Shown: positions 4,113 through 28,425 of the stretch, one piece after another | Numbering within the stretch: the first letter of the stretch is position 1 | Layout: the number at the start of each line of letters is the position of its first letter | Origin: Nitrospinota bacterium | GTDB lineage: Bacteria; UBA8248 | DNA: 36,302 nucleotides | Direction of reading: 5' to 3' | Assembly (NCBI GenBank): GCA_036231405.1 | Contig: JAZAHK010000020.1 | Location: forward strand, 1-36,302 | The notes under the pieces: generated by a model | The model's input: only the letters and a program-made list of their open reading frames with translations | The model's database searches: none | What the model was told of the DNA's origin: nothing | Made by a program: the position numbers and the translations under genes

Positions 4113-5333
4113 ATGCCAGAGGAAATAAATGCAATTCAAGTAGATCAAAACTATATTATTGAACTTTCACAAGAACTTATTCAAATCCCTGCAGAAAATC
4201 CCCCTGGTGATTGCTCTGATATTGCAGAAAAGATTTTAAAAGAACTTGATTCAATAGGAATCAGTGACATCAAAACATATGAATATGAAAAAGGAATGCC
4301 CAATTTCATTATTCAGACGGGAGATGGGAATGACAATGCAGGTCATTTTGTAATTGGCGGACATATGGACACCGTGCCAGTGCATCCAGATGAAATTGAA
4401 TCTTGGAAAGTCCCTCCATTTAGCGGTAAATTAATTGGGGACGAATTATGGGGGAGAGGAGCTGCTGATATGAAAGGTGCTCTTGCTTCTACCATTGGTG
4501 CATTTAAAGCTATCCAAGAACAAAAAATAAAAATTCCAGGAAAACTCACATGGGTCCTATTATCAGACGGGGAACATGGAGATTTTTACGGAGCCCAATC
4601 ACTTGTAAACAACGGAATTCTTAAGGAATTAGACGGCGATATGGTTCTATATACTGAATCGACAAGCAACAATATCATTCGTTCTTTTAAAGGCCGTATT
4701 TTTTTTGAAATCAAGGTACGCGGAAGATCCGTACACGTAAGTGTTCCACAAAAAGGGATAAATGCAATTGAAAAAATGGCAAAAATCATCGATGCCTTTA
4801 AAGCAGAACGCATCGCTCCTGATCCAGACCCCTTTTTAGGTCCATGCACGCTAACTTTCTCCACGATTCAAGGTGGATCTGCAGTTAATGTCGTAGGTGG
4901 TAGAGCAAGTGCTACATTCGACGTACGAATGATACCAGGACAAACATCATCCGAGGTGAAAAAACAGCTAGAAAAAATCATAGAAGAACTAAAAACCGAC
5001 GACCCTGAAATTGATGCTTCAATAGAAATAATACCTAGCGGAGCAAGGGAAGTAACAGAAATTTTAGAAGAAGAACCAGTCGTCGAATTGATGAAAAAAG
5101 TAATACCTGCAGTAAGAGGAAGCGAAAATGAACGTCTACCCGGCATAGAATCACCAGGTGCTCTCAGACTATTTATTGAAAACGGGATTCCTGGAATTTT
5201 CTTTGGACCTGGAGAATTTATATCAGAAGCTCATCTACCAAATGAGAGAGTTCCTGTAAAAAATTTAGTCGACGCAGCATCTATGTTTGCGACCGCTGCT
5301 AAAGAAGTTTGTAACGGTCCCAAACTAAAATAG
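4113..5333 (+). CDS. M20 family metallopeptidase/deacylase (ArgE/DapE-like)
   Basis: GHMDTVP, GRGAADMKG, SDGE, TES, GINAI, NVV, DVR, FGPG, AHLPNE. AGGAG RBS. Confidence 0.88.
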   Translation: MPEEINAIQVDQNYIIELSQELIQIPAENPPGDCSDIAEKILKELDSIGISDIKTYEYEKGMPNFIIQTGDGNDNAGHFVIGGHMDTVPVHPDEIESWKVPPFSGKLIGDELWGRGAADMKGALASTIGAFKAIQEQKIKIPGKLTWVLLSDGEHGDFYGAQSLVNNGILKELDGDMVLYTESTSNNIIRSFKGRIFFEIKVRGRSVHVSVPQKGINAIEKMAKIIDAFKAERIAPDPDPFLGPCTLTFSTIQGGSAVNVVGGRASATFDVRMIPGQTSSEVKKQLEKIIEELKTDDPEIDASIEIIPSGAREVTEILEEEPVVELMKKVIPAVRGSENERLPGIESPGALRLFIENGIPGIFFGPGEFISEAHLPNERVPVKNLVDAASMFATAAKEVCNGPKLK

Positions 5334-5344
5334 GTTTCTGTAAA

Positions 5345-5722
5345 TTAATAGCCTTCGTCGATGACTTCCTTTAGTTGAGTGCATCCTGCAACTAAGGCAG
5401 TCATTCCACAGGGAGGAAGCATACATTCTAAAGCTTCCGTGGCCTCTTCAACCGTAGCACCAAGTTGTAAGGCCTTTTTTAAATGATTTCGAATTCCTTC
5501 TAAGTCAGAAGGATTGCGAGAAGCACTCGCAACGGCAATAAAGAGTTCTTTGTACTTTTCAGGGAAAGGACCTTCTTTTTTCATAATATGATTCTTGAGT
5601 TCTTCATAGTGTTCCAAAAGATCTGGATCAACTTCACATAGAAGTTCATACGCAGGATATATGAATCCTCTAGCCGCTAACATCTTATCGTAAAGGGCTT
5701 TACCCCTTTCGCTCATTGCCAT
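5345..5722 (-). CDS. Carboxymuconolactone decarboxylase (CMD/AhpD-like) family protein
   Basis: DPDLLEHY...EKYKELFIAV...HLKKALQLGATVEEATEAL pattern; no CxxC motif. Confidence 0.8.
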   Translation of the reverse strand: MAMSERGKALYDKMLAARGFIYPAYELLCEVDPDLLEHYEELKNHIMKKEGPFPEKYKELFIAVASASRNPSDLEGIRNHLKKALQLGATVEEATEALECMLPPCGMTALVAGCTQLKEVIDEGY

Positions 5723-5757
5723 AGAAAACCTTCCGTATGATAGAAAAAAACATCAAA

Positions 5758-6516
5758 TTATTCATAAGGATAAACATCATGTTCAAGGACAGAAATCTCA
5801 TGGCCAGGCAAGATATATTCTTCTTTAGAAGCAATAGAAATACATCTATCTATACTATTAATCGCATCACTCATACTTGACATCTGCCCTGCTGGAACTC
5901 GACGATCCAAACCTTCCTGTATCTGAATAACATCAGCAGCAATTACGTACGTGCCAACCTTTGTTTCAACTGCTACAGAACAATGGCCGGGAGTATGCCC
6001 AGGGGTATGAAAATACATCACACCAGGAACAATTTCCGTTTCATCCTTCCAAATAGGTTCAAAAATGATGTTTTGCTGTGCGTAAACAGGCCACCTTGTA
6101 TTTGGATGAATTGGTGAATCGTAGGGCTTTGCTTGTAAACTAACGGGACACATCGCATACTGCAATTCTTTGGCCCAAACATACTTCACCGCGTTAGGGA
6201 AAAGGTCGCAATTTTGTGAATGATCCCAGTGCAGATGAGTCAAAATCAAAATTTCGACATCTTCACATTTCCATCCTGCACTCTCTACCTGTTTCTTCAC
6301 ATCTTGCTCAGAAGTTCTAGTTGCGGGCCATGGGGCACCACCTCTCTCGGGATCTAAGTAACTAGTATCAATCACTATCTTTTGATCCGCACCCTCGACA
6401 AGATAAATAAAAGAGGGAATATCAATTTTTGTGCCAAAATTTGTCCAGTAAACCATATTCGAATAATCGGTGTGGATAGTTCCACAATGTAACGGTCTAA
6501 TACTTAAATCTGCCAT
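5758..6516 (-). CDS. N-acyl-homoserine lactonase-like metallo-beta-lactamase fold hydrolase
   Basis: THLHWDH, TPGHTPGH, AAD and PGH metal-binding motifs. Confidence 0.85.
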   Translation of the reverse strand: MADLSIRPLHCGTIHTDYSNMVYWTNFGTKIDIPSFIYLVEGADQKIVIDTSYLDPERGGAPWPATRTSEQDVKKQVESAGWKCEDVEILILTHLHWDHSQNCDLFPNAVKYVWAKELQYAMCPVSLQAKPYDSPIHPNTRWPVYAQQNIIFEPIWKDETEIVPGVMYFHTPGHTPGHCSVAVETKVGTYVIAADVIQIQEGLDRRVPAGQMSSMSDAINSIDRCISIASKEEYILPGHEISVLEHDVYPYE

Positions 6517-6548
6517 GCCACATTTCCTTTTCTGATTAAAGTTATTTT

Positions 6549-7148
6549 CTAAACGTTTGCTCTTCTTGCAAATTCAACAACATCCATTAACTCTTGAGGA
6601 CCCTTCAGAACAGCAGCATCAAGACCTAATGAAATGTTAATACGATTACTAAAATTCCTGTAAGAAATTGATGCAATAATATCTAAAATATTTTCGTCAC
6701 TAAAACCTACATTCCTTAGCTTATTCAGATCATCTTCAGACATTGAATAATGGTCGAAAGTGAGTTTTTCTGCAAAAACAAGGATCTCTTTATCGGAATC
6801 ATCTAAAATCGGGGAGTTGTCGCGGTCCATAACTACACTAGCAACATCTGCAAGACTTACTTCATCGCCACTTTCATCACGGAAATTTTGGCCATGATTT
6901 AGCGTTCAACCATAACAGCCGCCAATGGTCGCAACGTAATAGGAAATCAATTCTTCTATTCTTTTCCCAAGTGAAGAGTTTCCTCCGTGGACGGCCATAT
7001 TCATCGTCTGCCTTCCATTCAAAACATCGGGTCTACGTGCCATGGCAAGTAAGAGTTTTGGAACTGCTCCTCGTTGTTCATTAATTTTCTCTAGAATAGA
7101 CTTCGCAGGCTCTTCCGTTTCGCCTAAACGTAAGGATGACATCCACAT
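6549..7148 (-). CDS. AhpD/CMD-like peroxidase-related protein, probable selenoprotein (in-frame UGA at 6906-6908, CYGU motif), 199 aa
   Basis: ORFs 6906-7148 and 6549-6830 share a frame. Readthrough gives EELISYYVATIGGCYG-U-TLNHGQNFRDESGD...FAEKLT...DLNKLRNVGFSDENILDII...NFSNRI, matching the CxxCxxxH peroxidase-related AhpD family. GGAGG RBS before 7148. Confidence 0.85.
6863..6896 (-). promoter_or_regulatory. Putative bacterial SECIS element
   Basis: Begins 9 nt after the UGA: CAU-G-GCCA-AAA-UUUC-[CGUGAU]-GAAA-G-UGGC-G-AUG. The apical loop starts 24 nt after the UGA with G at loop position 2. Confidence 0.65.
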
Positions 7149-7170
7149 ATATTAGGAACCTCCATAAAAA

Positions 7171-8223
7171 TTAACTTGCAGAATTTCGGACTTCTTTCTT
7201 TTTAAAGTGGGGCATTACCTCTTTTGCAAATCTTTCTAAAGACTTGATTGCATCACGCTGATTAATGCCTCTAAGTAAAAAATTCATCACATGATTTATC
7301 TTGAAGTCCTTTTCTAAGCGCTCTATATCTTTTATGACTTTTTCCGGAGGTCCGATTACTCCACCTCCTTCAATCTGTTCACGTATGGACAATTCATAAC
7401 TCATATTTCTTTTCAAAGATGATTTTTGTTCAATCGGCATCTCAATTGAATTTACCTCGCTTCTATAGTTTAGATACCAGGACTCGGCAGGTTCAATTTC
7501 TTTCCATGCAGACTCTGGATCGTCAGTTACATGAATATTATGGGCCATAAGATACGGGCAATCTTCAGGGGCTTTCCCTTCTTTTAGCATTGCTTGTTTA
7601 TATATTTCCATTTTCTCAAGATAATGCTCTGGACCTTTATGAGATGCAGAAGCCATAACATGAAACCCGTTTGCAGCTGCATATTCATAAGTCTCATGAC
7701 TCGTCCCAGCAATCCAAATTGGGATCGGATTTTGAATTGGTTTAGGATGTATTTCTATGTCAATACAACTATAATATTTTCCGTGAAAAGTGAGTGTTTC
7801 TCCCGAAAGAAGTTTCGTCAAAATTTCAATTCCCTCTTGCATACGCTCGCGGCTTTCAGAAGGATCTAAATTAAACCCTTGAAATTCTTTTGGTTGAGAT
7901 CCTCTTCCAATACCAAACTCGAGTCGACCACCACTAAGAACATCTACCAAAGCAGCTTGTTCTGCCAAGCGAATTGGATTATGGAATGGAACTATACTAA
8001 TGGCAGTACCAACCCTTATTTGTTTAGTCTTCTGTGCAATTGCCAAAGCAACCATCAGAGCATCCGGACACATCCCAACCCTAGAAAAATGGTGTTCAGC
8101 GACAAAAGCAGCATCAAACCCAAGTTCGTCTGCAATAACGCACTGTTCAATTAGATTATTGTATTCTTCTTGATAGGATTCACCTTCCTGACAGGAAGGG
8201 ATGAAAAAAATTGAAAATTTCAT
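7171..8223 (-). CDS. Luciferase-like (LLM class) flavin-dependent oxidoreductase/monooxygenase
   Basis: ADELGFDAAFVAEHHF, PIRLAEQAALVDVLSGGRLEFGIGRG, PKPIQNPIPIWIAG. Start moved to MKFSIFF (ATG 8223, AGGTG upstream). Confidence 0.9.
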   Translation of the reverse strand: MKFSIFFIPSCQEGESYQEEYNNLIEQCVIADELGFDAAFVAEHHFSRVGMCPDALMVALAIAQKTKQIRVGTAISIVPFHNPIRLAEQAALVDVLSGGRLEFGIGRGSQPKEFQGFNLDPSESRERMQEGIEILTKLLSGETLTFHGKYYSCIDIEIHPKPIQNPIPIWIAGTSHETYEYAAANGFHVMASASHKGPEHYLEKMEIYKQAMLKEGKAPEDCPYLMAHNIHVTDDPESAWKEIEPAESWYLNYRSEVNSIEMPIEQKSSLKRNMSYELSIREQIEGGGVIGPPEKVIKDIERLEKDFKINHVMNFLLRGINQRDAIKSLERFAKEVMPHFKKKEVRNSAS

Positions 8224-8243
8224 ATAAATACACCTATACAAAA

Positions 8244-8669
8244 CTAATTAAAAGCTGGGGGTGGATTCATGGTGTAGACCTTATTCACACTGATTTTGTA
8301 AATCACGCGAACCTGATCCTTTTGACGATTAGAGTAAGAATCCACGTCCAAATATTTTCTTGCAAGTACATCAATGTGTTCATCCGCACCCTCTTCCGTT
8401 ATGTCCACAACACTTCCTTGAATCCCCATCCAGAGAAACGCGTTTTCTGGATCAACTATAGCTAAAGAAACTCGTTCATTTCTTCTCATATTTTTATCTT
8501 TAACCCTTCCCTTAGCAGAATTAACTAGTATGAATTCTTCATCCACATTAAACCACAAAGGAGAAACTTGAGGAGAGCCATCTTCCATGGTCGTAGCTAA
8601 AAAAAGAAGAGCTTTAGATTGAAGAAGATGTATGTGAGAATCAGGAATTTTTCCAAGCAAGTCTGACAT
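8244..8669 (-). CDS. PPOX class (pyridoxamine 5'-phosphate oxidase-like) probable F420-dependent oxidoreductase
   Basis: LATTMEDGSPQVSPLWF, NSAKGRVKDKNMRRNERVSLAIVDPEN, HIDVLARKY, RV. Start at MSDLLG (ATG 8669 after GGAG); the longer ORF extension is antisense to the tauE-like gene. Confidence 0.88.
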   Translation of the reverse strand: MSDLLGKIPDSHIHLLQSKALLFLATTMEDGSPQVSPLWFNVDEEFILVNSAKGRVKDKNMRRNERVSLAIVDPENAFLWMGIQGSVVDITEEGADEHIDVLARKYLDVDSYSNRQKDQVRVIYKISVNKVYTMNPPPAFN

Positions 8670-8796
8670 TAAAAATCTCCGAAAACTAATTACAAAAAAA
8701 TCAAACACAATTTGAAGAACATAACCATATGCAATAAAGTGGTTTTTTTCAAATATATTAAAAAAATTAATCATTATTTGTCTAGATTGGATAAAA

Positions 8797-9540
8797 TTGG
8801 AATATTTCCTTGTTTTTTGTGCTGCTTTTGTTGGTTCTGGATTAAAAGCTGTTGGTGGGTTTGGTTTTGCAACACTTACTACTCCTACAGTTTCTCTTTT
8901 TTGGGACGTCCCTACAGCAATCATTGTAATCTCTATCCCAACTTTGGTGACCAGTTTTTTCAATTGTTGGAGAACTCGTGAAGCAGCAAAAGAAGGTTTT
9001 TCGATTTTTTTTCCCTTCTTTACTACAAGTCTTATAGGGCTTGGAGTTGGCTTAACTATCTTGCTAAATATGAACCCAAATTTAATGAAATTCATCTTAG
9101 GGCTTTTTTTAGTGATTCAAATTAGTTGGGATCACTTCAATAATTCAGAAACAAAGAAAAAAAAGAGTACTCTCACACGATCGATTGGGATGGGAGGAAT
9201 TGCAGGATTAATGCTAGGAACTGTTGGTATGCCATCACACGTTATCGCATCTTACTTAACAGGAATGAATTTATCAAAAAACAGATATCTTTTTATTTTA
9301 AGTAGCACGCAAGTGATTCTCCGTGTAACTACGATAGCGTTTCTTCAATCTAGACTTGTAGGCAAAGAAGTGATAGGCCTTACCGTTATCATGTTTATCC
9401 CTGTACTACTTGGGTTTGTGGTAGGAACTAAAATATACAAGTTCCTAACTGACAAAATATTTTTCAACATTATAAAAATTATTGTCTTATTAATGGGTTT
9501 TGCTTTAATCATAAGATATCTAAGTCAGCACATAAATTAA
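8797..9540 (+). CDS. Sulfite exporter TauE/SafE family membrane protein
   Basis: About 8 hydrophobic helices; FVGSGLKAVGGFGFA...P and GGIAGLMLGTVGMP repeats. Confidence 0.8.
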   Translation: MEYFLVFCAAFVGSGLKAVGGFGFATLTTPTVSLFWDVPTAIIVISIPTLVTSFFNCWRTREAAKEGFSIFFPFFTTSLIGLGVGLTILLNMNPNLMKFILGLFLVIQISWDHFNNSETKKKKSTLTRSIGMGGIAGLMLGTVGMPSHVIASYLTGMNLSKNRYLFILSSTQVILRVTTIAFLQSRLVGKEVIGLTVIMFIPVLLGFVVGTKIYKFLTDKIFFNIIKIIVLLMGFALIIRYLSQHIN

Positions 9541-9556
9541 AAGTTGATTTCAGCAT

Positions 9557-9610
9557 ATAAAAAAAGGCAAAAGACTTTAAAAGTCTCTTGCCTTTTTTAT
9601 GTTTTTTGTT
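9557..9610. terminator. Bidirectional Rho-independent terminator
   Basis: ATAAAAAAAGGCAAAAGACTT-TA-AAGTCTCTTGCCTTTTTTAT-like hairpin with A and T tails, between the convergent tauE-like and ABC ATPase genes. Confidence 0.8.
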
Positions 9611-9616
9611 TTTTTT

Positions 9617-10381
9617 TTAATTTCCCCTTACAGCATCGGTAGTCTCTTTTTCAAGTTCTACAAATCTTGGGTCAAAAACGTCTCTCTTATATTCCTCTGA
9701 TCTTGGAAGATCTACTTTAATCACTTTGTGAATTACACCTGGTTGTCCTGCAAGAACAATGATTCTATCTGCAAGAAAAACTGCTTCACTTAAATTATGT
9801 GTAACGTAGAAGATGGTCTTCTTAGTCTTTTTCCATACTTCTACGGTTAATGATTGCAGATCTTCTCTTGTTTGTGCATCTAAAGCACCAAAAGGTTCAT
9901 CCATAAGAAGAAATTCTGGTTCATAAGCATACGCCCTTGCAACGGCAACACGCTGTCTCATTCCTCCAGAAAGATTATGTGGATAAAATTGAGCGAATTT
10001 TTCTAAATGAACTAATTCAAGATATTTCATTGCAATTTCTACTCTTTCTTCTTTTCCTACTCCTTTCATTTCCAAACCAAACTCAACGTTACCAAGAGCT
10101 GTTCTCCAAGGGAAAAGTGCATACTCTTGGAAAACGACTGCCCTGTTTAATCTCCCAGCTTCATCTATAGGCCTTCCATCCAGTTCTATGGTACCACCTG
10201 TTGGATCAAAGAAACCGCCGAGTATATTTAAAAGAGTAGTTTTACCACAACCAGACAAACCAACGACTACTAAAAATTCGCCATCTTCTATTTCAAGATT
10301 GATATCAGTCAGTGCATGAACAAGTCTATCTTTTAATGTGTACTCCATTTCTAACTTTTGAATGCTTACTTTGGAAGACAT
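9617..10381 (-). CDS. ABC transporter ATP-binding protein, NitT/TauT family
   Basis: Walker A GLSGCGKT, VFQEYALFPW, LSGGMRQR, LLMDEPFGALDAQTR, VTH. Confidence 0.93.
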   Translation of the reverse strand: MSSKVSIQKLEMEYTLKDRLVHALTDINLEIEDGEFLVVVGLSGCGKTTLLNILGGFFDPTGGTIELDGRPIDEAGRLNRAVVFQEYALFPWRTALGNVEFGLEMKGVGKEERVEIAMKYLELVHLEKFAQFYPHNLSGGMRQRVAVARAYAYEPEFLLMDEPFGALDAQTREDLQSLTVEVWKKTKKTIFYVTHNLSEAVFLADRIIVLAGQPGVIHKVIKVDLPRSEEYKRDVFDPRFVELEKETTDAVRGN

Positions 10382-10456
10382 TATTTCCCCTATCTATTTC
10401 AGTTAATCAACTATAAATTTACAAAAAATTACTGGCTATTCTATGCCTTCTCAATA

Positions 10457-11329
10457 CTAACCTGATCCTACCTCTGCCATCATACCCCATTTAATGACAG
10501 TGGCTCTTTCCAGTTTTTCAAAAAGGAATTTTTCAATAATAAAACCCACAAGGGCTATAGTAGCTATACCGACAAGCATAAAACCCATATCTAAATCTTC
10601 GCGGCTATCAAAAATCGCATAACCTAATCCCCAGTCACTAGCTGCAACCATTTCCGCTGCAATTCCTGCTCTCCATGCACGTGCAAGACCAATACGTAGA
10701 CCCGACAAAATAAACGGTAATGACCCTGGTAAAGTCACTTTCCGAAAGAGAACCATTCCATTAGCATTCATTGACCTAGCAGCTCTTGTCCATATAGGGT
10801 TTACCGTTTTCACTCCAGTCCAAGTAGCAGAAATAGCAGGCAATGCGGCAGCAAAAGAAGTTATAAATATCATTGTGGCATTTCCAAGTCCGAACCAAAG
10901 AACACAAACAGGGCTCCACGCTAGTGCAGGAATCGGTAGTAACATACTTTGTATTGGAACCATAAATTTTTCAAACCAAACAGAAATTCCCATAGCAATT
11001 CCAATGCTTACTCCAACAACTGATGCTATCGCTATTCCAATCAATATTCTGTAGGAAGTATGCCAAGCGTGAACACAAAGAATACAATTCGTTTCTCCTG
11101 CTTTTAGAAAAATTACTTCGTACCCACGCTGTATAATAGACCCTTCGAAGGTTCCTGGGAAAACACCTGAACGAGGGAAAAGTGCCGGTTCTGCGGCAAC
11201 CCAGGTAAGGAGTTCCCAAATAAGGATAACTGCAATAAAACTTGGAACATTATCTTTTAACCATTGAACCAACCTCTCCCTACCAGATAAAACTGGAGGA
11301 AGTCTTACTTCATCTCTTTGCGTTACCAT
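10457..11329 (-). CDS. ABC transporter permease, NitT/TauT family
   Basis: PIPALAWSP...LWFGLG, EAA-like loop RAARSMNAN, LPGSLPFILSGLRIG, AAEMVAA..GLG. Confidence 0.9.
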   Translation of the reverse strand: MVTQRDEVRLPPVLSGRERLVQWLKDNVPSFIAVILIWELLTWVAAEPALFPRSGVFPGTFEGSIIQRGYEVIFLKAGETNCILCVHAWHTSYRILIGIAIASVVGVSIGIAMGISVWFEKFMVPIQSMLLPIPALAWSPVCVLWFGLGNATMIFITSFAAALPAISATWTGVKTVNPIWTRAARSMNANGMVLFRKVTLPGSLPFILSGLRIGLARAWRAGIAAEMVAASDWGLGYAIFDSREDLDMGFMLVGIATIALVGFIIEKFLFEKLERATVIKWGMMAEVGSG

Positions 11330-21437: not shown

Positions 21438-22097
21438 TTTCTCTCCATTATATAGAATCTAGGAATCACCCTTTTTTTCATTTAAAACAGCTTTCAAACA
21501 TTTTACTCCCATCATTAAAGAAGGACCTCCTGAGGGGAAAATCAGGCACTGGACAGTTTCAAAAATTTCGTCCTCGGTAGCACCAAGGCTTAGTGCCCTT
21601 CTAATGTGGTTCATTACGTAAACTTCTGTTTCAGGACCTGGGAGTCTAACACAAAGAGCAGCGATAATTATAAGTTCACGAAATTTTTCACTTAGAGCAC
21701 CCTCTCTTTTTATTACATGATTATAAAGAGCGCTTTGTTTAGTATGGTAATCTGGATCCTTGTTTATATAGAACTCCTGTTCCGGTAAAACCCATCCACG
21801 GTCCTTAATTGTCTGTTCTATTAACTCTTTGCTTTTATCATCATTCATTGGAACCCCCTTGAACACATTTCTTGAAAAGGCATGAAAATTTGAAGAAATC
21901 CTCAGTAAGGTAAAAAATACATTTTTCTTCACCCATTTGATATCTGCATGATAACAACTTTAAAATACAGTATCTAAACATTTAGGAAATAATCCAACTT
22001 GGAAACAAAATTTAATCGGAATCCAGACGTTTTTAAATAAGGTGTTCGGAAAATGAATAAAGGTATTTTTGCAACATGGTACGATCTAAAAGAAGAA
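21393..22097. repeat. 49-bp inverted repeat pair (21393-21441 and 22049-22097, 48/49 identical)
   Basis: GAAAATG(G/A)ATAAAGGTATTTTTGCAACATGGTACGATCTAAAAGAAGAA occurs on the minus strand at the start of 20694-21437 and on the plus strand at 22049. Confidence 0.93.
21459..21848 (-). CDS. Carboxymuconolactone decarboxylase (CMD) family protein
   Basis: GALSEKFRELIIIAAL...HIRRALSLGATEDEIFE; paralog of 5345-5722. Start MNDDKS (ATG 21848) follows AAGGGGG. Confidence 0.82.
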   Translation of the reverse strand: MNDDKSKELIEQTIKDRGWVLPEQEFYINKDPDYHTKQSALYNHVIKREGALSEKFRELIIIAALCVRLPGPETEVYVMNHIRRALSLGATEDEIFETVQCLIFPSGGPSLMMGVKCLKAVLNEKKGDS

Positions 22098-24618: not shown

Positions 24619-27600
24619 ATGATGAAAAAATTTAAAATTGGAGTAGATGTTGGTGGTACTTTCACGGACCTAGTAATTATGGACGCCAATTCAAATTTGC
24701 TCTGCTTAAGTAAATCACCCACAACCATTTATAATCCAGAAAATGGAATAATCTCCTGTATAGAAAAAGCGGCCAATTATCTAGGTGTTAAAAAAGAATT
24801 TCTTCTTCAAAATTGCGAAAAATTTGTCCATGGTACAACTGCAGCGACAAATGCATTACTAACCAAAAAAGGCGCTAAAATTGGACTTTTAACTACGAAA
24901 GGATTTCGTGATTCTCTATCTTTTCGAAGAGGGTTCAGAGAGAATGTATGGGATCATCGTGCTGCCTACCCCACTGTATTAGCACCACGTTATCTCCGAT
25001 TCCCAATACAAGAAAGAATAAATTCAGACGGTCGCAAGGAAATAGATTTAAGTGAAAATGACGTTTTAAAAACAACTTCTTTTTTAAAAAAAGAGAAGAT
25101 AGAATCATTAGCTATTTGCTTCATAAACTCGTATTTAAATCCTTCCCATGAAAAAAAAACAAGGAATATTCTTAAAAAAGAAGGTCTTAAAATTCCAATT
25201 TTTCTTTCTTCTGAAATCGCACCTATAATCGGAGAATACGAAAGAAGTTCTACAACCTGTGTAAATGCCTATATATATCCCGTTGTAACTTCCTATCTAA
25301 TAGAACTGGAAAAACAGCTTAGAGCGACTTGTTATGAGAATCCAATACATCTTGTTCAAAGTAATGGAGGAATGACTGATATAAAACAAGCCATTAAGAC
25401 TCCGATAAGTCTCGTGCTATCAGGGCCGGCTGCAGGTGCTTCTACCGGTTGTATTTATGCAAAATCCTTTAAAAAACAAAATGGAATTTTTTTCGATATG
25501 GGTGGGACTAGTACCGATGTTACTCTAATAAGGGACGGCACACCAGGTATGATAGATCAATCTACAGTAGGCGGCTACCACGTCAATCTGCCTTCCGTAG
25601 AAGTCCAAACTATTGGGACTGGAGGAGGAACCTTGATTTGGGTTGACGCTGCGAAAGGGATCAGAGTAGGCCCTGAAAGCGCTGGTTCTGAACCCGGACC
25701 TGCTTGTTATGGAAAAGGAGGAAATCAACCTACTATAACGGATGCAAATTTATTGCTGGGTCGAATTAACAAAAAAGGACTATTAAACGGAGAAATCCCA
25801 CTTTCAATCGAGAACGCCAGGTCAGCATTTAATAAGCATATTGCTAAAAAACTCAGGCTGAATTTAAATCAATCTGCTATAAGTGCAATACGTTTAGCAA
25901 ATCAGTTTATGGCAAGTTCTATTTTAACAATTTGTTCTCGACACGGATCTGACCCTAGAGACTTAACTCTCATTGCAGGAGGAGGAGCAGGAGGTATTTC
26001 CGCTTCTAGTGTTGCGAGAATTTGTGGTATCAAGAAAATCCTTATCCCAAGAGAAGCCTCTGCAGCCTGTGCTGTCGGGATGGTATGTGGACCTTTACGA
26101 TATGATCGGAAAAGAAGTTTCATGGTAAGAACTAGAGAAATAAGCACAAAAGAAATTCTAAAACAATTCGAAAGTTTAAAAAAAGAAACAAAAACCTTAA
26201 TTTCAAAAACAAAAAATCAAGAGTTAAATTTTGGAATAGATATGCAATATCCTGGTCAAGCCTGGGAATTAACTGTTTCTCTAGATACAATTTCTCTGAA
26301 AACACTGTCTCCCTCAAAACTTGAATCACTCTTTCACAAAGAACATTTAAACAATTATGGGCACAATAGGCCAAATGAACCAGTACAAATCACAGGTTTT
26401 AGGATTACAGTAAAAGAAAAACAAGACTCGTTTCCACCCAAACATCCAGAAATTCAAAGGAGAGGAAAAATTTCTCCTGAACAACGAAATGTTTATTTCG
26501 AGAAAACTGATAGTTGGGGAAACTCCAAAATATTTAAAGGTGAAAACATAACTAAGCAAACGAAGATTAAAGGACCTGTAATAATAGAAGAACCTTCCAC
26601 TACTATCTTAGTTGAACCTGGAGACATACTTTCCTTAAATAAAAACGGAGCATTTCAAATAGAACTAGTAACGAAAAAATCTGGGGAAAGAAAAAATCGA
26701 ATCAAAAAAATCGATCCTGCAAGCCTAGCTATTTTTCAAAATCAACTAGACCTTATTTCTCGTCAAATGGGGATCATAATGCAAAGGACTGCACGATCCA
26801 CCATTTTTAGTCAAGCACACGATTTTTCATGCTTCATAACCGACCCATCAGGTCAACTGGTATCTCAAGCAGATGGGCTTCCTATACATACAGGAAGTGG
26901 AGGTTTTGCAGTTCGTGCTGTTCTCAAGAAGTTCGATAAACAAATATATCCTGGAGATCTCTTTCTGCTTAATGATCCTTATATTGGTGGAGGAAATCAC
27001 CTTCCTGATTGGACCGTAATTGCTCCTGTTTTCGACCAAAACACTTTATGCGGTTTCGTTTCGAATCGTGCACATCAAGTTGATGTTGGTGGGGGTGTAA
27101 TAGGGACCTACAATTCTGATGCAACAGAAATATTTCATGAAGGAATCAGAATTTCTCCGATAAAAATTAGAGAGGAAGGAAATTTCGTTGGTGACATTTT
27201 AAAACTCATTCTCTCAAATACAAGAGCACCAGAAGTTATCAAACATGATTTTTCCGCAATGATCGGAAGTACGAAAATTGGAGTCTCTAAACTTAAAGAA
27301 ATAATACATGACAAAGGGAAGAGATTTGTCTTACAAGGCTTCTCAGAACTTTTGGATTACTCCGAATCTTTGATGCGTTCTGAACTAAAGAAAATTCCTA
27401 ATGGAATTTACAAGGGAAAAGAAACTATGAACACAGATTGTTTTGAAGCAAAAGAAATTCCGATACGATTGAAGCTAACTAAAAAGGGAACAAATATCAC
27501 TGCAGATTTTTCGGGAAGTTCTCCACAAATCAAAGGATATAAAAATAGTCCAATATCAAACACACATTCCGCTTTATATACTGGGATTTCTTCTCTAGTG

Positions 27601-28425
27601 GATCCAAATATTCCGCACAATGAGGGTTCATATAGACCTATAAAAATCATTGCGCCTGAAGGAAGTATCGTGAATGCAAGTTTCCCAGCACCTGTTACAT
27701 TGTGCACAGTATTTCCTGCCCACGAAATTATTCATTGTGTGTGGAAATCAATATACAAAAAATTGCCGGACAAAGTATCGGCGGCATGGGCAAAAACTGC
27801 ATATCCAATTACAGCAGGATACGATGAAAAAAATGAATTTTTTGTAATTTACCATTGGCTCGGAGGACCAGGGACTGGAGCTGTTATGGGAAGAGATGGA
27901 CTAGACCTTATAGGAAATCTTCCTACCCTAGGAGCTTTAACAATCCCAAATTTAGAACATTACGAACAAGATTATCCAGTTCACTTCGTCCGACAAGAAA
28001 TTAGAAAAGATGGTGGTGGACCTGGAAAATGGAGAGGCGGTACCAGTGTAGATTATGAAGTGCATATTAAATCTCCAATCAGTTGTTCTACAAGAGGAGA
28101 ATCTTGCAGAACGATAACATCATTCGGATTGAACAAAGGGAAATCAGGTTCAATTGCTAGAGTACTTTACAAAGAAATTGGAAAGAGTAAGTGGGTCACA
28201 CTTCCTCAATACAAAAATATTGAACTGCCACCAGGGAATCTTAAAATTGAAGGTGCCGGCGGCGGCGGTTTTGGAAATCCTTATCAAAGACACATAAAAA
28301 CAGTCTTAGAAGATGTCAAAAACGGTATTGTTTCTGTAAAAAGTGCGCTCCTGGATTATGGAGTGTCAATCAATTTAAGAAATTTTAAAGTAGATCAATC
28401 TAACACAAGGAAAGCAAGACACTAA
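24619..28425 (+). CDS. Fused hydantoinase A/B (ATP-dependent 5-oxoprolinase/N-methylhydantoinase-like cyclic amidohydrolase)
   Basis: A half: GVDVGGTFTD, HGTT.ATNA, SGPAAG, DMGGTSTD, GPESAGSEPGPACYG.GG. B half: HDFSC, NDPY.GG.HLPD, RAHQVDVGG, GGPGKWRGG, GGGGFGNP. Confidence 0.92.
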   Translation: MMKKFKIGVDVGGTFTDLVIMDANSNLLCLSKSPTTIYNPENGIISCIEKAANYLGVKKEFLLQNCEKFVHGTTAATNALLTKKGAKIGLLTTKGFRDSLSFRRGFRENVWDHRAAYPTVLAPRYLRFPIQERINSDGRKEIDLSENDVLKTTSFLKKEKIESLAICFINSYLNPSHEKKTRNILKKEGLKIPIFLSSEIAPIIGEYERSSTTCVNAYIYPVVTSYLIELEKQLRATCYENPIHLVQSNGGMTDIKQAIKTPISLVLSGPAAGASTGCIYAKSFKKQNGIFFDMGGTSTDVTLIRDGTPGMIDQSTVGGYHVNLPSVEVQTIGTGGGTLIWVDAAKGIRVGPESAGSEPGPACYGKGGNQPTITDANLLLGRINKKGLLNGEIPLSIENARSAFNKHIAKKLRLNLNQSAISAIRLANQFMASSILTICSRHGSDPRDLTLIAGGGAGGISASSVARICGIKKILIPREASAACAVGMVCGPLRYDRKRSFMVRTREISTKEILKQFESLKKETKTLISKTKNQELNFGIDMQYPGQAWELTVSLDTISLKTLSPSKLESLFHKEHLNNYGHNRPNEPVQITGFRITVKEKQDSFPPKHPEIQRRGKISPEQRNVYFEKTDSWGNSKIFKGENITKQTKIKGPVIIEEPSTTILVEPGDILSLNKNGAFQIELVTKKSGERKNRIKKIDPASLAIFQNQLDLISRQMGIIMQRTARSTIFSQAHDFSCFITDPSGQLVSQADGLPIHTGSGGFAVRAVLKKFDKQIYPGDLFLLNDPYIGGGNHLPDWTVIAPVFDQNTLCGFVSNRAHQVDVGGGVIGTYNSDATEIFHEGIRISPIKIREEGNFVGDILKLILSNTRAPEVIKHDFSAMIGSTKIGVSKLKEIIHDKGKRFVLQGFSELLDYSESLMRSELKKIPNGIYKGKETMNTDCFEAKEIPIRLKLTKKGTNITADFSGSSPQIKGYKNSPISNTHSALYTGISSLVDPNIPHNEGSYRPIKIIAPEGSIVNASFPAPVTLCTVFPAHEIIHCVWKSIYKKLPDKVSAAWAKTAYPITAGYDEKNEFFVIYHWLGGPGTGAVMGRDGLDLIGNLPTLGALTIPNLEHYEQDYPVHFVRQEIRKDGGGPGKWRGGTSVDYEVHIKSPISCSTRGESCRTITSFGLNKGKSGSIARVLYKEIGKSKWVTLPQYKNIELPPGNLKIEGAGGGGFGNPYQRHIKTVLEDVKNGIVSVKSALLDYGVSINLRNFKVDQSNTRKARH

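Follow-up and report, generated by a model that had tools for sequence, protein, structure and literature searches.

In bacterial selenocysteine (Sec) insertion of the E. coli fdhF type, a stem-loop located directly 3' of the UGA is bound by SelB, and the minimal SECIS element of E. coli has a spacing of 11 nt. Canonical AhpD is typically encoded adjacent to AhpC (ahpC-ahpD), and Bmp8, the tetrabromopyrrole debrominase, is a reductive enzyme that depends on Cys and occurs in marine bacteria. AhpD-like selenoproteins with a CxxU motif (TIGR01926/COG2128) have been published since 2005, when 27 sequences were reported from the Sargasso Sea (Zhang and Gladyshev 2005, PMC1088965), and the GOS selenoproteome included 299 sequences of AhpD-like 1 (COG2128), the family fourth in abundance there (Zhang and Gladyshev 2008, PMC2398784). 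A 2026 review also lists an "AhpD-like protein, TIGR01926, CxxU" (PMC13188914), in line with the statement of the initial annotation that such proteins are known from marine bacteria. Among the criteria given for selenoproteins is a SECIS-like stem-loop directly 3' of the UGA that has a G in its small apical loop (PMC1088965). For M. tuberculosis AhpD, an AhpC-reducing adaptor, a proton relay of Glu118/Cys130/His132/Cys133/His137 has been described (PMC3141380).

The window (the whole stretch of 36,302 nt from a Nitrospinota bacterium that was analysed) contains a further member of the CxxU family. The minus-strand region 6549-7148 is very probably one gene encoding a 199-residue AhpD-fold "peroxidase-related" thiol/selenol oxidoreductase, in which the UGA at 6906-6908 is decoded as Sec. 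It shares with the published family the TIGR01926 model, Sec as the second residue of CxxU, widespread Cys homologs and a stem-loop just 3' of the UGA whose apical loop is small and includes a G; no categorical difference was found. The coordinates of the features are listed in the table.

Features of the selenoprotein locus (all on the minus strand of the window)
Feature	Coordinates	Strand	Remarks
AhpD-like (TIGR01926) predicted selenoprotein CDS	6549..7148	-	199 codons plus TAG stop (6549-6551); ATG 7148-7146
In-frame TGA, predicted Sec codon U81	6906..6908	-	second position of the CxxU redox motif C78-Y-G-U81
GGAGG Shine-Dalgarno-like motif	7159..7163	-	read from the sequence; 10 nt 5' of the ATG
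Glu66 codon	6951..6953	-	12 residues before Cys78; position of M. tuberculosis AhpD Glu118
His85 codon (CxxUxxxH)	6894..6896	-	position of M. tuberculosis AhpD His137
Candidate SECIS hairpin core	6867..6892	-	lower stem GCC/GGC, upper stem (A)AUUUC/GAAAG(U), apical loop CGUGAU 6876-6881
Full hairpin of the initial annotation with outer CAU/AUG arm	6863..6896	-	in the window the arm folds, with -7.2 kcal/mol for the entire hairpin; arm not conserved
Competing hairpin AUCAUGG[CCAAAAUUU]CCGUGAU	6876..6898	-	MFE fold in the window; 9-nt loop without G; -3.8 kcal/mol
Luciferase-like (LLM) flavin monooxygenase	7171..8241	-	PF00296, 224.7 bits; 22 nt before the selenoprotein ATG
Metallo-beta-lactamase (MBL)-fold hydrolase	5758..6516	-	PF00753, 63.6 bits; weak lactonase-like matches; downstream
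Carboxymuconolactone-decarboxylase (CMD)-family protein	5345..5722	-	125 aa, without CxxC; PF02627, 40.5 bits (cutoff 23); fourth gene

Two ORFs of the same frame, one of 80 aa stopped by the TGA (6906..7148, minus strand) and one of 93 aa (6549..6830, minus strand), are parted by this single TGA and 25 sense codons (codons 82-106), as the initial annotation had reported. Read through, the TGA bridges frames of 80 and 118 codons into 199 residues, and the translation around it (...IGGCYG-U-TLNHG...) bears out the joined sequence GGC-Y-G-UGA-T-L-N-H given previously. In the list of window ORFs obtained with TGA read as U, this was the sole frame judged to fuse two substantial table-11 ORFs via one TGA; the remaining one-TGA frames containing a table-11 ORF merely lengthened its 5' end. 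A scan of positions 5000-9700 gave 11 promoter-like and three terminator-like sites, which was not above shuffles. Word-indexed searches of 5.8 billion proteins returned from this clade the halves only, as pieces of 80 aa and approximately 93-116 aa, and an exhaustive search of representatives found as the nearest full-length protein the Cys-type P0022 (CIGC), which is 46% identical over the matched stretches. The gene is real and annotated wrongly as two, confirming the observation, made in the initial annotation, that gene callers split it. Because a full-length version from this clade was missing from both protein searches, the redox-active selenoenzyme appears to be absent from public protein sets. 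The practical value of the finding is an annotation fix; the selenoenzyme would otherwise be overlooked when selenoproteomes and antioxidants of these marine bacteria are inventoried.

Once U was replaced by C, the protein matched the NCBIfam model TIGR01926 "peroxidase-related enzyme" at 102.3 bits (cutoff 81.8), with residues 4-176 aligned on model positions 4-173 of 178. The Pfam CMD model (PF02627) scored 22.1 bits, just below the gathering threshold of 23; this shortfall is marginal, and the more specific NCBIfam model was passed. The structure model (pLDDT 93.2, pTM 0.90) superposed on AhpD-fold structures, and 6k40 from D. radiodurans was the best Foldseek match (TM 0.78/0.83). Five Cys-type structures of comparable length (about 185-197 aa), 6k40, 3c1l (Mesorhizobium Mlr4105), 2pfx, 2oyo and 2prr, were matched both by Foldseek (E 2e-8 to 4e-7; TM 0.71-0.78 on the query) and by the PDB sequence search (E from 3.6e-17, for 3c1l, to 2.4e-9), and the CxxC of each was aligned on CYG-U. 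They differ from the selenoprotein in having Cys for Sec, and the identity over the structural alignment is 22-33%.

M. tuberculosis AhpD (1knc, 1gu9) has in common with the selenoprotein the CMD/AhpD helical fold and the Glu...CxxC...His spacing (Glu -12, His +4 from the second Cys; PMC3141380), although the structural match is distant (Foldseek E 0.09-0.5, TM 0.43-0.50). Four of the five relay positions are kept (E66, C78, U81 for Cys133, and H85), whereas the His132/Tyr position is Gly80. Among 147 aligned representatives, Glu was found at the Glu66 column in 109 and His at the His85 column in 123; the residue before Sec is Gly (CYGU or CTGU), where 111 of the 147 relatives have Tyr. No ahpC adjoins the selenoprotein gene, and NCBIfam models identified no peroxiredoxin (AhpC) gene among the 32 window ORFs. 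The likeness to AhpD that was found thus concerns chemistry, and not a partnership with AhpC. In the predicted product, the C78-x-x-U81 redox centre lies where a helix begins, and Glu66 and His85 flank it at the proton-relay positions. We infer that Sec81, at the position of AhpD Cys133, acts as the attacking nucleophile and that Cys78 would resolve it to form a selenenyl-sulfide.

Alignment of homologs showed TGA at column 81 in 31 of 34 related loci; two Thermoplasmata (archaeal) loci had TGT or TGC, and the remaining one was a fragment without the motif. The TGA-bearing loci were labelled Nitrospinaceae, Nitrospinota, unlabelled "bacterium", Dehalococcoidia, SAR202 and, in one case, Betaproteobacteria, and were 33-91% identical; the stop at this column was always TGA and never TAA or TAG. 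Among the 147 aligned distant relatives, column 81 was Cys in 90 and column 78 was Cys in 106, in agreement with the earlier placement of the UGA at the second Cys of CxxCxxxH. The public occurrence of the two halves only is also what would be expected of a dead gene whose TGA arose by faulty sequencing or assembly, or by a nonsense mutation that recently struck a TGY Cys codon, and one relative (L032) is a genuinely decayed fragment with in-frame stops. Such a pseudogene or artefact can scarcely be credited here, since the same TGA recurs in independently assembled loci down to 33% identity, the catalytic and family-invariant residues 3' of the TGA are all retained, and the dN/dS ratio of codons 82-199 was 0.079 against L001 and 0.123 against L003. 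The divergence among the TGA-bearing relatives also excludes a single contaminating sequence. Nor did the close relatives all carry TGY without a conserved hairpin, the outcome that the initial annotation had named as contrary to its reading; TGA prevails and the hairpin core is kept. These comparisons argue that the TGA is neither a sequencing error nor a recent mutation, and the dN/dS values indicate that the downstream half is under purifying selection and translated.

In the next clade (loci L004 to L023), an ATG lies two codons past the TGA (TGA-ACG-ATG) and gene callers begin the downstream piece at it (P0002-P0004 start with MNHG), which would permit termination at the UGA and re-initiation just downstream, with two polypeptides made from a split gene. 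Of 22 sequences, 17 have ATG as codon 83, but the window's clade has CTA, CTT, CTC or TTA there, none of them a common start, and the next ATG (codon 107) is found in only 10 of the 22; with such patchy ATGs, a separate downstream protein has no conserved start. A genuine stop would also divide the CxxC/U...H active site between two chains; those relatives with Cys at the column carry it within a single chain. Termination also leaves the constant use of TGA unexplained. It was therefore considered very improbable, and decoding of the UGA as Sec was retained as the reading of the locus.

The synonymous difference was 0.40 in codons 82-96 and 0.79 elsewhere. Equally low values were obtained in seven of 185 windows of 15 codons, every one of which overlapped codons 78-100, and the gene-wide minimum of synonymous divergence was located just 3' of the TGA, over the candidate hairpin. 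This pattern shows an RNA-level constraint confined to approximately 15 codons after the TGA, as a SECIS predicts.

The hairpin of the initial annotation (CAU/AUG, GCCA/UGGC and UUUC/GAAA, with the loop CGUGAU 24 nt after the UGA) is present as described. CAU (6896-6894) pairs with AUG (6865-6863), GCCA with UGGC, and UUUC (6885-6882) with GAAA (6875-6872) around the loop at 6881-6876, and this hairpin is the centroid structure. In 14 distinct sequences, 88% of the cells, including those of the outer arm, were paired, versus 27-59% when the helix was slid. Pair 22-39 was compensatory (G-C in nine sequences and A-U in four), which in the Nitrospinota set is a single clade-level event, and the four upper pairs were invariant. 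In the outer arm, pair 14-45 was unpaired in eight of 14 sequences, pair 15-44 in three of 14 and pair 13-46 in two of 13. The conserved part thus comprises only the GCC/GGC and (N)NUUUC/GAAAN(N) core. Hairpin energies were computed for 13 of the 14 sequences, with the gapped L024 left out; the core had -2.7 kcal/mol in the window clade, and among the 10 next-clade sequences evaluated it had -10.6 in nine and -8.6 in one (L020).

Folding of 6845-6915 (minus strand) by RNAfold, a check that the initial annotation had proposed, did not favour its hairpin: the MFE of -13.6 kcal/mol was ordinary (z = -0.76, with 45 of 200 shuffles folding at least as well), and the MFE structure contained the other, competing hairpin of the table, which is mutually exclusive with it. 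At this z value, thermodynamics alone lend the hairpin no support, and the better-than-chance evidence is comparative, namely the conserved TGA, the Cys homologs and the synonymous minimum 3' of the TGA. Of the SECIS-like hairpin claimed previously, the core therefore stood as conserved, but the outer CAU/AUG arm did not, and the fold is weak and has a competitor. The 6867-6892 hairpin with its 6-nt loop CGUGAU agrees with the published stem-loop criterion (PMC1088965), while in the window it does not surpass shuffled sequences in energy.

The five core pairs of the competing hairpin were paired in all 14 sequences, with a one-sided change from U-G to C-G and no compensatory change. By position, this 5-bp core is homologous to the base of a hairpin in the distant TGA-bearing orthologs of Dehalococcoidia type, which have a clean 7-bp stem (ACGGAGN-GUU-NCUCCGU) with its first base at the 11th nt after the UGA. 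There, 95.9% of the cells were paired versus 35-57% when slid, and a C-G to G-C swap was present in one sequence; 77 of 500 shuffles did as well. The covariation support for the hairpins is thin, and protein constraint explains part of the helix conservation, since the helices lie in codons for the conserved H-G...F-R-x-E-S-G. A long-range helix, GGCCAG/CUGGCC, that dominated the MFE folds of L004 to L023 was rejected as a shared element, as it is absent from the window's clade. Rfam gave no match at gathering thresholds in the whole window, and at E <= 10 the single match within 6750-7000 was an irrelevant snoRNA (E 9.1).

Like the fdhF SECIS, the candidate is an in-CDS hairpin right after the UGA whose small apical loop includes G(U), and the stem of the Dehalococcoidia-type orthologs likewise begins at the 11th nt. 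Unlike it, the best-supported hairpin of the window clade is weak; counted from the UGA, it begins at the 14th nt and its loop at the 25th, and orthologs in different phyla use different hairpins. In the proposed mechanism, a ribosome reaching UGA81 would meet a stem-loop in the next ~45 nt of the CDS that recruits SelB with Sec-tRNA(Sec), and Sec would be inserted in place of termination. The likeliest SelB-recruiting element may be the conserved GCC/GGC plus UUUC/GAAA hairpin with the G-containing CGUGAU loop. The understanding of Sec decoding is unchanged by this finding.

Sec machinery was not found in the window and the 34 loci (631,853 nt): ARAGORN detected no tRNA-Sec there, the tRNAs being none in the window and only those for Leu, Lys, Arg and Ala in five loci, and tblastn with E. 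coli K-12 SelA, SelB and SelD gave no match at E <= 1e-3. NCBIfam models likewise identified no sel genes in the 32 window ORFs. As indirect support for such machinery, the ten bacteria of BSepDB that are richest in selenoproteins include MAGs labelled Nitrospinota/Nitrospinaceae and Dehalococcoidia (PMC13326102). The lack of these genes in the 632 kb inspected, together with TGA being the rarest stop of the window, would suit read-through without Sec, either by genome-wide reassignment of TGA (Trp or Gly) or by near-cognate or suppressor insertion of Cys or Trp. This was judged highly unlikely, because TGA does end three of the 33 window genes and, in relatives, closes a full-length LLM gene whose match reaches model position 325 of 329; the source genome still uses TGA as a stop. 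In addition, no second frame fusing two substantial ORFs was noticed in the list with TGA read as U, the codon falls on the redox Cys column of a family whose Sec forms have been published, and the local RNA constraint 3' of the TGA fits a SECIS and not reassignment. Insertion of Sec at this codon remains the preferred reading.

Single in-frame TGAs in redox-like motifs were scanned for a second selenoprotein in the window and the 34 loci, which would be independent evidence of Sec decoding in these genomes, giving 433 candidates in 292 clusters (239 singletons), the largest of which, with 31 members, was the AhpD-like gene itself. No second selenoprotein was found among five further candidates tested: two were adjacent same-frame gene pairs with a real TGA stop between them, one ran on past the C-terminus of an M20 deacylase, and two were without a family match. 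Assignment of an M20 deacylase among the window ORFs to the selenium-related YgeY family was rejected as sub-threshold (168.1 and 142.4 bits versus cutoffs of 321 and 321.5).

The earlier proposal of a 199-aa AhpD-like, peroxidase-related CxxU selenoprotein held in all of the tests run, which covered the TIGR01926 match, the fold, the Sec/Cys pair, the TGA, selection and RNA constraint. A family without a known substrate thereby gains a member that is well supported, by 31 orthologs bearing the TGA together with an outgroup of Cys type.

The selenoprotein gene is the second of a co-directional cluster in the order LLM flavin monooxygenase, AhpD-Sec, MBL-fold hydrolase and CMD protein. The LLM gene lies directly upstream in all 24 Nitrospinota-type loci, and the MBL-fold gene is present in 23, the exception being L018, which ends right after the selenoprotein gene. 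Bmp8 (6ohi, 6ohj) has an AhpD-type fold (TM 0.68-0.70) and differs in its identity of 14% to the selenoprotein. It might tentatively be suggested, as a rather doubtful assignment, that the Sec-AhpD of the Nitrospinota-type lineage is a dedicated selenol reductase in a four-gene small-molecule pathway and not a general AhpC-linked antioxidant; by analogy with Bmp8, its substrate would then be a product of the monooxygenase, either an organic hydroperoxide or an intermediate activated by halogenation or in another way, which it would reduce. If true, this would be the first substrate assigned to an abundant, functionally blank family of marine AhpD-like selenoproteins. The conserved cluster provides a handle for finding the substrate, and its fourth gene, encoding the CMD-family protein, was present in 23 of the 24 loci with 77-98% amino-acid identity.

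On the minus strand of the window, an 80-codon open reading frame runs from 7148 down to 6909 and is terminated by TGA (6906-6908), past which the frame is open as far as a TAG at 6549-6551; GGAGG lies 10 nt upstream of the ATG. The standard ORF list reports two separate pieces, whereas reading the TGA as U gives 199 residues (...ATIGGCYG-U-TLNHGQNFRDESGD...). The coordinates, the CxxU motif and the gap of 25 codons described in the initial annotation were all reproduced by the ORF list and the read-through translation. In the TGA=U ORF list, this gene was the only frame judged to fuse two substantial table-11 ORFs via one TGA, the remaining one-TGA entries with a table-11 ORF merely lengthening its 5' end.

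Coordinates of the study gene, its RNA hairpins and neighboring features in the window
Feature	Position	Strand	Remark
Predicted AhpD-like selenoprotein gene	6549..7148	-	199 aa
Upstream ORF piece	6906..7148	-	80 aa
Downstream ORF piece	6549..6830	-	93 aa, begins at Met107
Hairpin H2, core	6867..6892	-	
Hairpin H2, with outer CAU/AUG arm	6863..6896	-	
Hairpin H1	6876..6898	-	competes with H2
LLM flavin monooxygenase gene	7171-8241	-	22 nt upstream of study gene
MBL-fold (lactonase-like) hydrolase gene	5758-6516	-	32 nt downstream of study gene
CMD-family gene	5345-5722	-	125 aa, after MBL gene; PF02627, 40.5 bits
Third CMD-superfamily gene	21459-21932	-	PF02627, 36.8 bits
ORF with PPOX/F420-type domain	8244-9095	-	283 aa; domain at residues 156-276 only
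TauE/SafE-family membrane protein ORF	8797-9540	+	PF01925, 61.9 bits
Caprolactamase/hydantoinase-type ORF	24619-28425	+	1268 aa; alpha 5-682, beta 698-1267

The dN/dS of codons 82-199 was 0.079 against L001 and 0.123 against L003 (relatives 89-91% identical), and that of codons 1-80 was 0.019 against both. No conserved start for a separate downstream protein was found when codons 83 and 107 were compared in 22 sequences: codon 83, an ATG in 17 of them, is CTA, CTT, CTC or TTA within the window's clade (window and loci L001-L003), and ATG stands at codon 107 in only 10. Genome-wide reassignment of TGA was rejected, because TGA, although the rarest stop codon of the 33 window genes (TAA 18, TAG 12, TGA 3; ~38% GC), does end three of them and, in relatives, terminates a luciferase-like flavin monooxygenase (LLM) gene whose family match extends to model position 325 of 329.

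Scanning one genome per species with a degenerate pattern gave 139 pattern matches, and 34 loci (L001-L034) encode a relative. TGA occupies the Sec column in 31 loci (L001-L030 and L034; 33-91% identity to the window), labeled Nitrospinaceae, Nitrospinota, unlabelled 'bacterium', Dehalococcoidia, SAR202 and, once, Betaproteobacteria. Two Thermoplasmata loci (L031 and L033; 30-31% identity) carry TGT or TGC, and neither TAA nor TAG was found at this column among the 34 loci read. The recurrence of TGA at the same column excludes a sequencing error and, over this range of identity, a recent nonsense mutation. The motif is absent from L032 (10001-10234; 54% identity over a partial match), a decayed Dehalococcoidia copy in which only residues 102-180 match and two in-frame stops occur. 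In L021 (gene 10001-10573), eight codons of the C-terminal half are deleted in frame (...MSEAGFSDEN...), leaving 191 versus 199 codons; the deleted stretch is conserved throughout the remaining Nitrospinota-type copies.

Consistent with TGA at the Sec column, public protein sets hold the split pieces. A search for near-length proteins returned five of 110-136 aa, three beginning with MNHG two residues past the TGA, and a search for shorter proteins returned 15, of which 10 are exactly 80 aa. An exhaustive representative search gave 974 matches at E <= 1e-3; 147 of the 150 listed were aligned, three fragments (P0006, P0013 and P0021) being omitted. The initial annotation had placed the UGA at the second Cys of the CxxCxxxH motif, and query position 81 is indeed Cys in 90/147 aligned among the matches listed, with Cys at position 78 in 106, His at position 85 in 123 and the C..C...H triple in 78. 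The closest full-length relative among the matches listed, P0022 (201 aa; 46% identity across the stretches that match), has CIGC. With TGA conserved in relatives and Cys at column 81, this column is, as judged from the sequences, a classic Sec/Cys pair.

The study protein, with U stored as C, matched NCBIfam TIGR01926 'peroxidase-related enzyme' nearly end to end (102.3 bits; cutoff 81.8), and the Pfam carboxymuconolactone decarboxylase (CMD) match was marginal (22.1 bits vs 23). By sequence, the nearest solved structures were 3c1l (Mlr4105, E 3.6e-17), 6k40 (D. radiodurans AhpD), 2pfx, 2oyo and 2prr, whose CxxC aligns on CYG-U. AlphaFold2, run on an alignment of 50 sequences, gave a confident, all-helical model (pLDDT 93.2, pTM 0.90). 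These same entries were its best superpositions: 6k40 (TM 0.78/0.83) and, with E-values from 2e-8 to 4e-7, 3c1l, 2prr, 2pfx and 2oyo. The debrominase Bmp8 matched at TM 0.68-0.70, and M. tuberculosis AhpD was only a distant structural match (E 0.09-0.5). The AhpD-like peroxidase-related identity proposed earlier is thus borne out by family score and fold.

AhpD-like CxxU selenoproteins are described among the Sargasso Sea data (27 sequences, COG2128, predicted SECIS elements; PMC1088965), in the GOS survey as 'AhpD-like 1', the fourth most abundant family (299 sequences, 37 samples, 902 Cys homologs; PMC2398784), and in a 2026 review table entry, 'AhpD-like protein, TIGR01926, CxxU' (PMC13188914). 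Every defining feature of the family that was tested was found in the study gene, which therefore belongs to this already published family and is mis-annotated as two fragments. These orthologs may already be in BSepDB or the sequence lists of the cited papers; the study gene adds a strong comparative data set, a lineage-specific hairpin switch and a conserved gene cluster.

The proton relay described for M. tuberculosis AhpD (Glu118, Cys130, His132, Cys133 and His137; PMC3141380) corresponds here to Glu66, Cys78, Gly80, predicted Sec81 and His85, respectively; Glu stands at the first column in 109 and Tyr at the third in 111 of the 147 aligned among the matches listed. The Sec forms are CYGU, CTGU or CHFU. 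Where AhpD has His132 and Tyr is common, codon 80 (6909-6911, minus strand) encodes Gly before Sec; Gly also occurs there in the Sec forms of Dehalococcoidia (CTG-U) and in the nearest Cys form among the matches listed (CIG-C). The low pKa of Sec could render the fifth relay residue dispensable. The nucleophile of AhpD is Cys133; here Sec81 would attack and Cys78 would resolve.

Constraint on the RNA just 3' of the UGA was apparent at synonymous sites. When the window's clade was compared with 18 distinct next-clade sequences (lengths differed in L019, L021 and L024, which were excluded), 0.40 of comparable synonymous sites differed in codons 82-96 (772 comparisons) versus 0.79 elsewhere (9242 comparisons). 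Only 7 of 185 15-codon windows were equally low, every one overlapping codons 78-100, and H85 CAU, G86 GGC, F89 UUC, R90 CGU, E92 GAA, G94 GGC and V97 GUA are near-frozen. In our reading, selection acts on this RNA, which is what a bacterial SECIS would demand.

The 71-nt fold of the window was uninformative alone (MFE -13.6 kcal/mol, z = -0.76), its MFE structure being H1 (AUCAUGG, 9 nt, CCGUGAU) and its centroid H2, the hairpin of the initial annotation, which exists as described. Across 14 distinct sequences, H2 was paired in 88% of cells versus 27-59% with the 3' partners slid, and the four UUUC/GAAA pairs and C19-G40 were invariant. Pair 22-39 is G-C in nine sequences and A-U in four, a compensatory change coupling a synonymous AGU-to-AGC (Ser93) with AAU-to-GCU (codon 88). 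The core of the proposed hairpin is conserved, but conservation does not extend to its outer CAU/AUG arm, where 8/14 sequences leave pair 14-45 unpaired. The 5-bp core of H1 was paired in 14/14, its sole change being one-sided, U-G to C-G.

Energies (kcal/mol) were computed for 13 of the 14 sequences, L024 being left out. In the window, L001, L002 and L003, the H1 core was at -3.8 and the H2 core at -2.7, H2 with the outer arm reaching -7.2 (window and L003), -3.7 (L001) and -2.8 (L002); in 10 next-clade sequences, the H1 core ranged from -3.0 to -4.8, the H2 core was -10.6 in nine and -8.6 in L020, and H2 with the outer arm ranged from -9.5 to -15.1. In the seven TGA-bearing orthologs that are more distant, the shared structure is a clean hairpin of 7 bp (ACGGAGN-GUU-NCUCCGU). 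Its stem begins at nt 11 past the UGA, with its base in the same register as Nitrospinota-group H1, and pairing is 95.9% versus 35-57% when slid. Covariation consists of a single swap, C-G to G-C, in L034 and is statistically weak, since 77/500 shuffles score as well. The covariation evidence comprises very few independent events, located in codons for conserved residues. For the window's lineage, H2 is probably a better SECIS candidate than H1. In L004-L023, a long-range helix (GGCCAG/CUGGCC; +13 to +60 nt 3' of the TGA) surrounds the SECIS-like hairpin and dominates second-clade MFE folds, but the window's clade lacks it.

No tRNA was found in the window, no tRNA-Sec in the 34 loci, no sel gene among the 32 annotated window ORFs, and no tblastn match to E. 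coli SelA, SelB or SelD within the 631,853 nt of window and loci; these negatives concern a small sample and not the whole genome. Table 2 of BSepDB lists 48-54 selenoprotein genes in MAGs with the names uncultured Nitrospinota bacterium, uncultured Nitrospinaceae bacterium and Nitrospinae bacterium (GTDB UBA8248), and 46-49 in two Dehalococcoidia MAGs, all ranking in its top ten bacteria (PMC13326102). These counts lend indirect support to Sec decoding, tied to the window via the closest loci's labels only.

The window and 34 loci yielded 433 candidates for further selenoprotein genes in 292 clusters, and none of five tested was real. In the second Nitrospinota clade, same-frame gene pairs with nothing but a TGA between them occur at L004 7446-8873 (+) and 15 other loci and at L005 6329-8428 (+); they consist of an F420/mer-like LLM gene and a PPOX gene, or of two LLM genes, with TGA after Cys-Val or Ser. 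As CxU or SU selenoproteins they were rejected, since by family matches each pair is two complete separate genes, and such pairs are a trap for automated selenoprotein finders.

The study gene lies in a co-directional cluster (5345-8241, minus strand) of LLM, AhpD-like Sec, metallo-beta-lactamase (MBL) and CMD genes with intergenic gaps of 22-35 nt. Among the Nitrospinota-type loci L001-L024, LLM is kept in 24/24 and MBL and CMD each in 23/24, the missing case being L018, which stops just past the selenoprotein gene; the four-gene order was absent from L025-L034 (Dehalococcoidia, SAR202, Betaproteobacteria and archaeal loci). No peroxiredoxin gene was found near the study gene among the annotated window ORFs, and this together with the conserved cluster hints at a dedicated pathway role, a speculative and rather improbable reading.

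The small CMD protein has no NCBIfam match or CxxC motif and is encoded by the cluster's most conserved gene (89-91% identical to L004-L023; selenoprotein 70-75%, LLM 66-70% in the same loci). A third CMD-superfamily gene occurs in the 36-kb window. The 283-aa PPOX/F420-type ORF, whose 5' part is overlapped by the TauE/SafE-family ORF, is probably over-extended, its true start likely being an internal Met. Caprolactamase/hydantoinase-type alpha and beta parts are fused in one polypeptide in the 1268-aa ORF.
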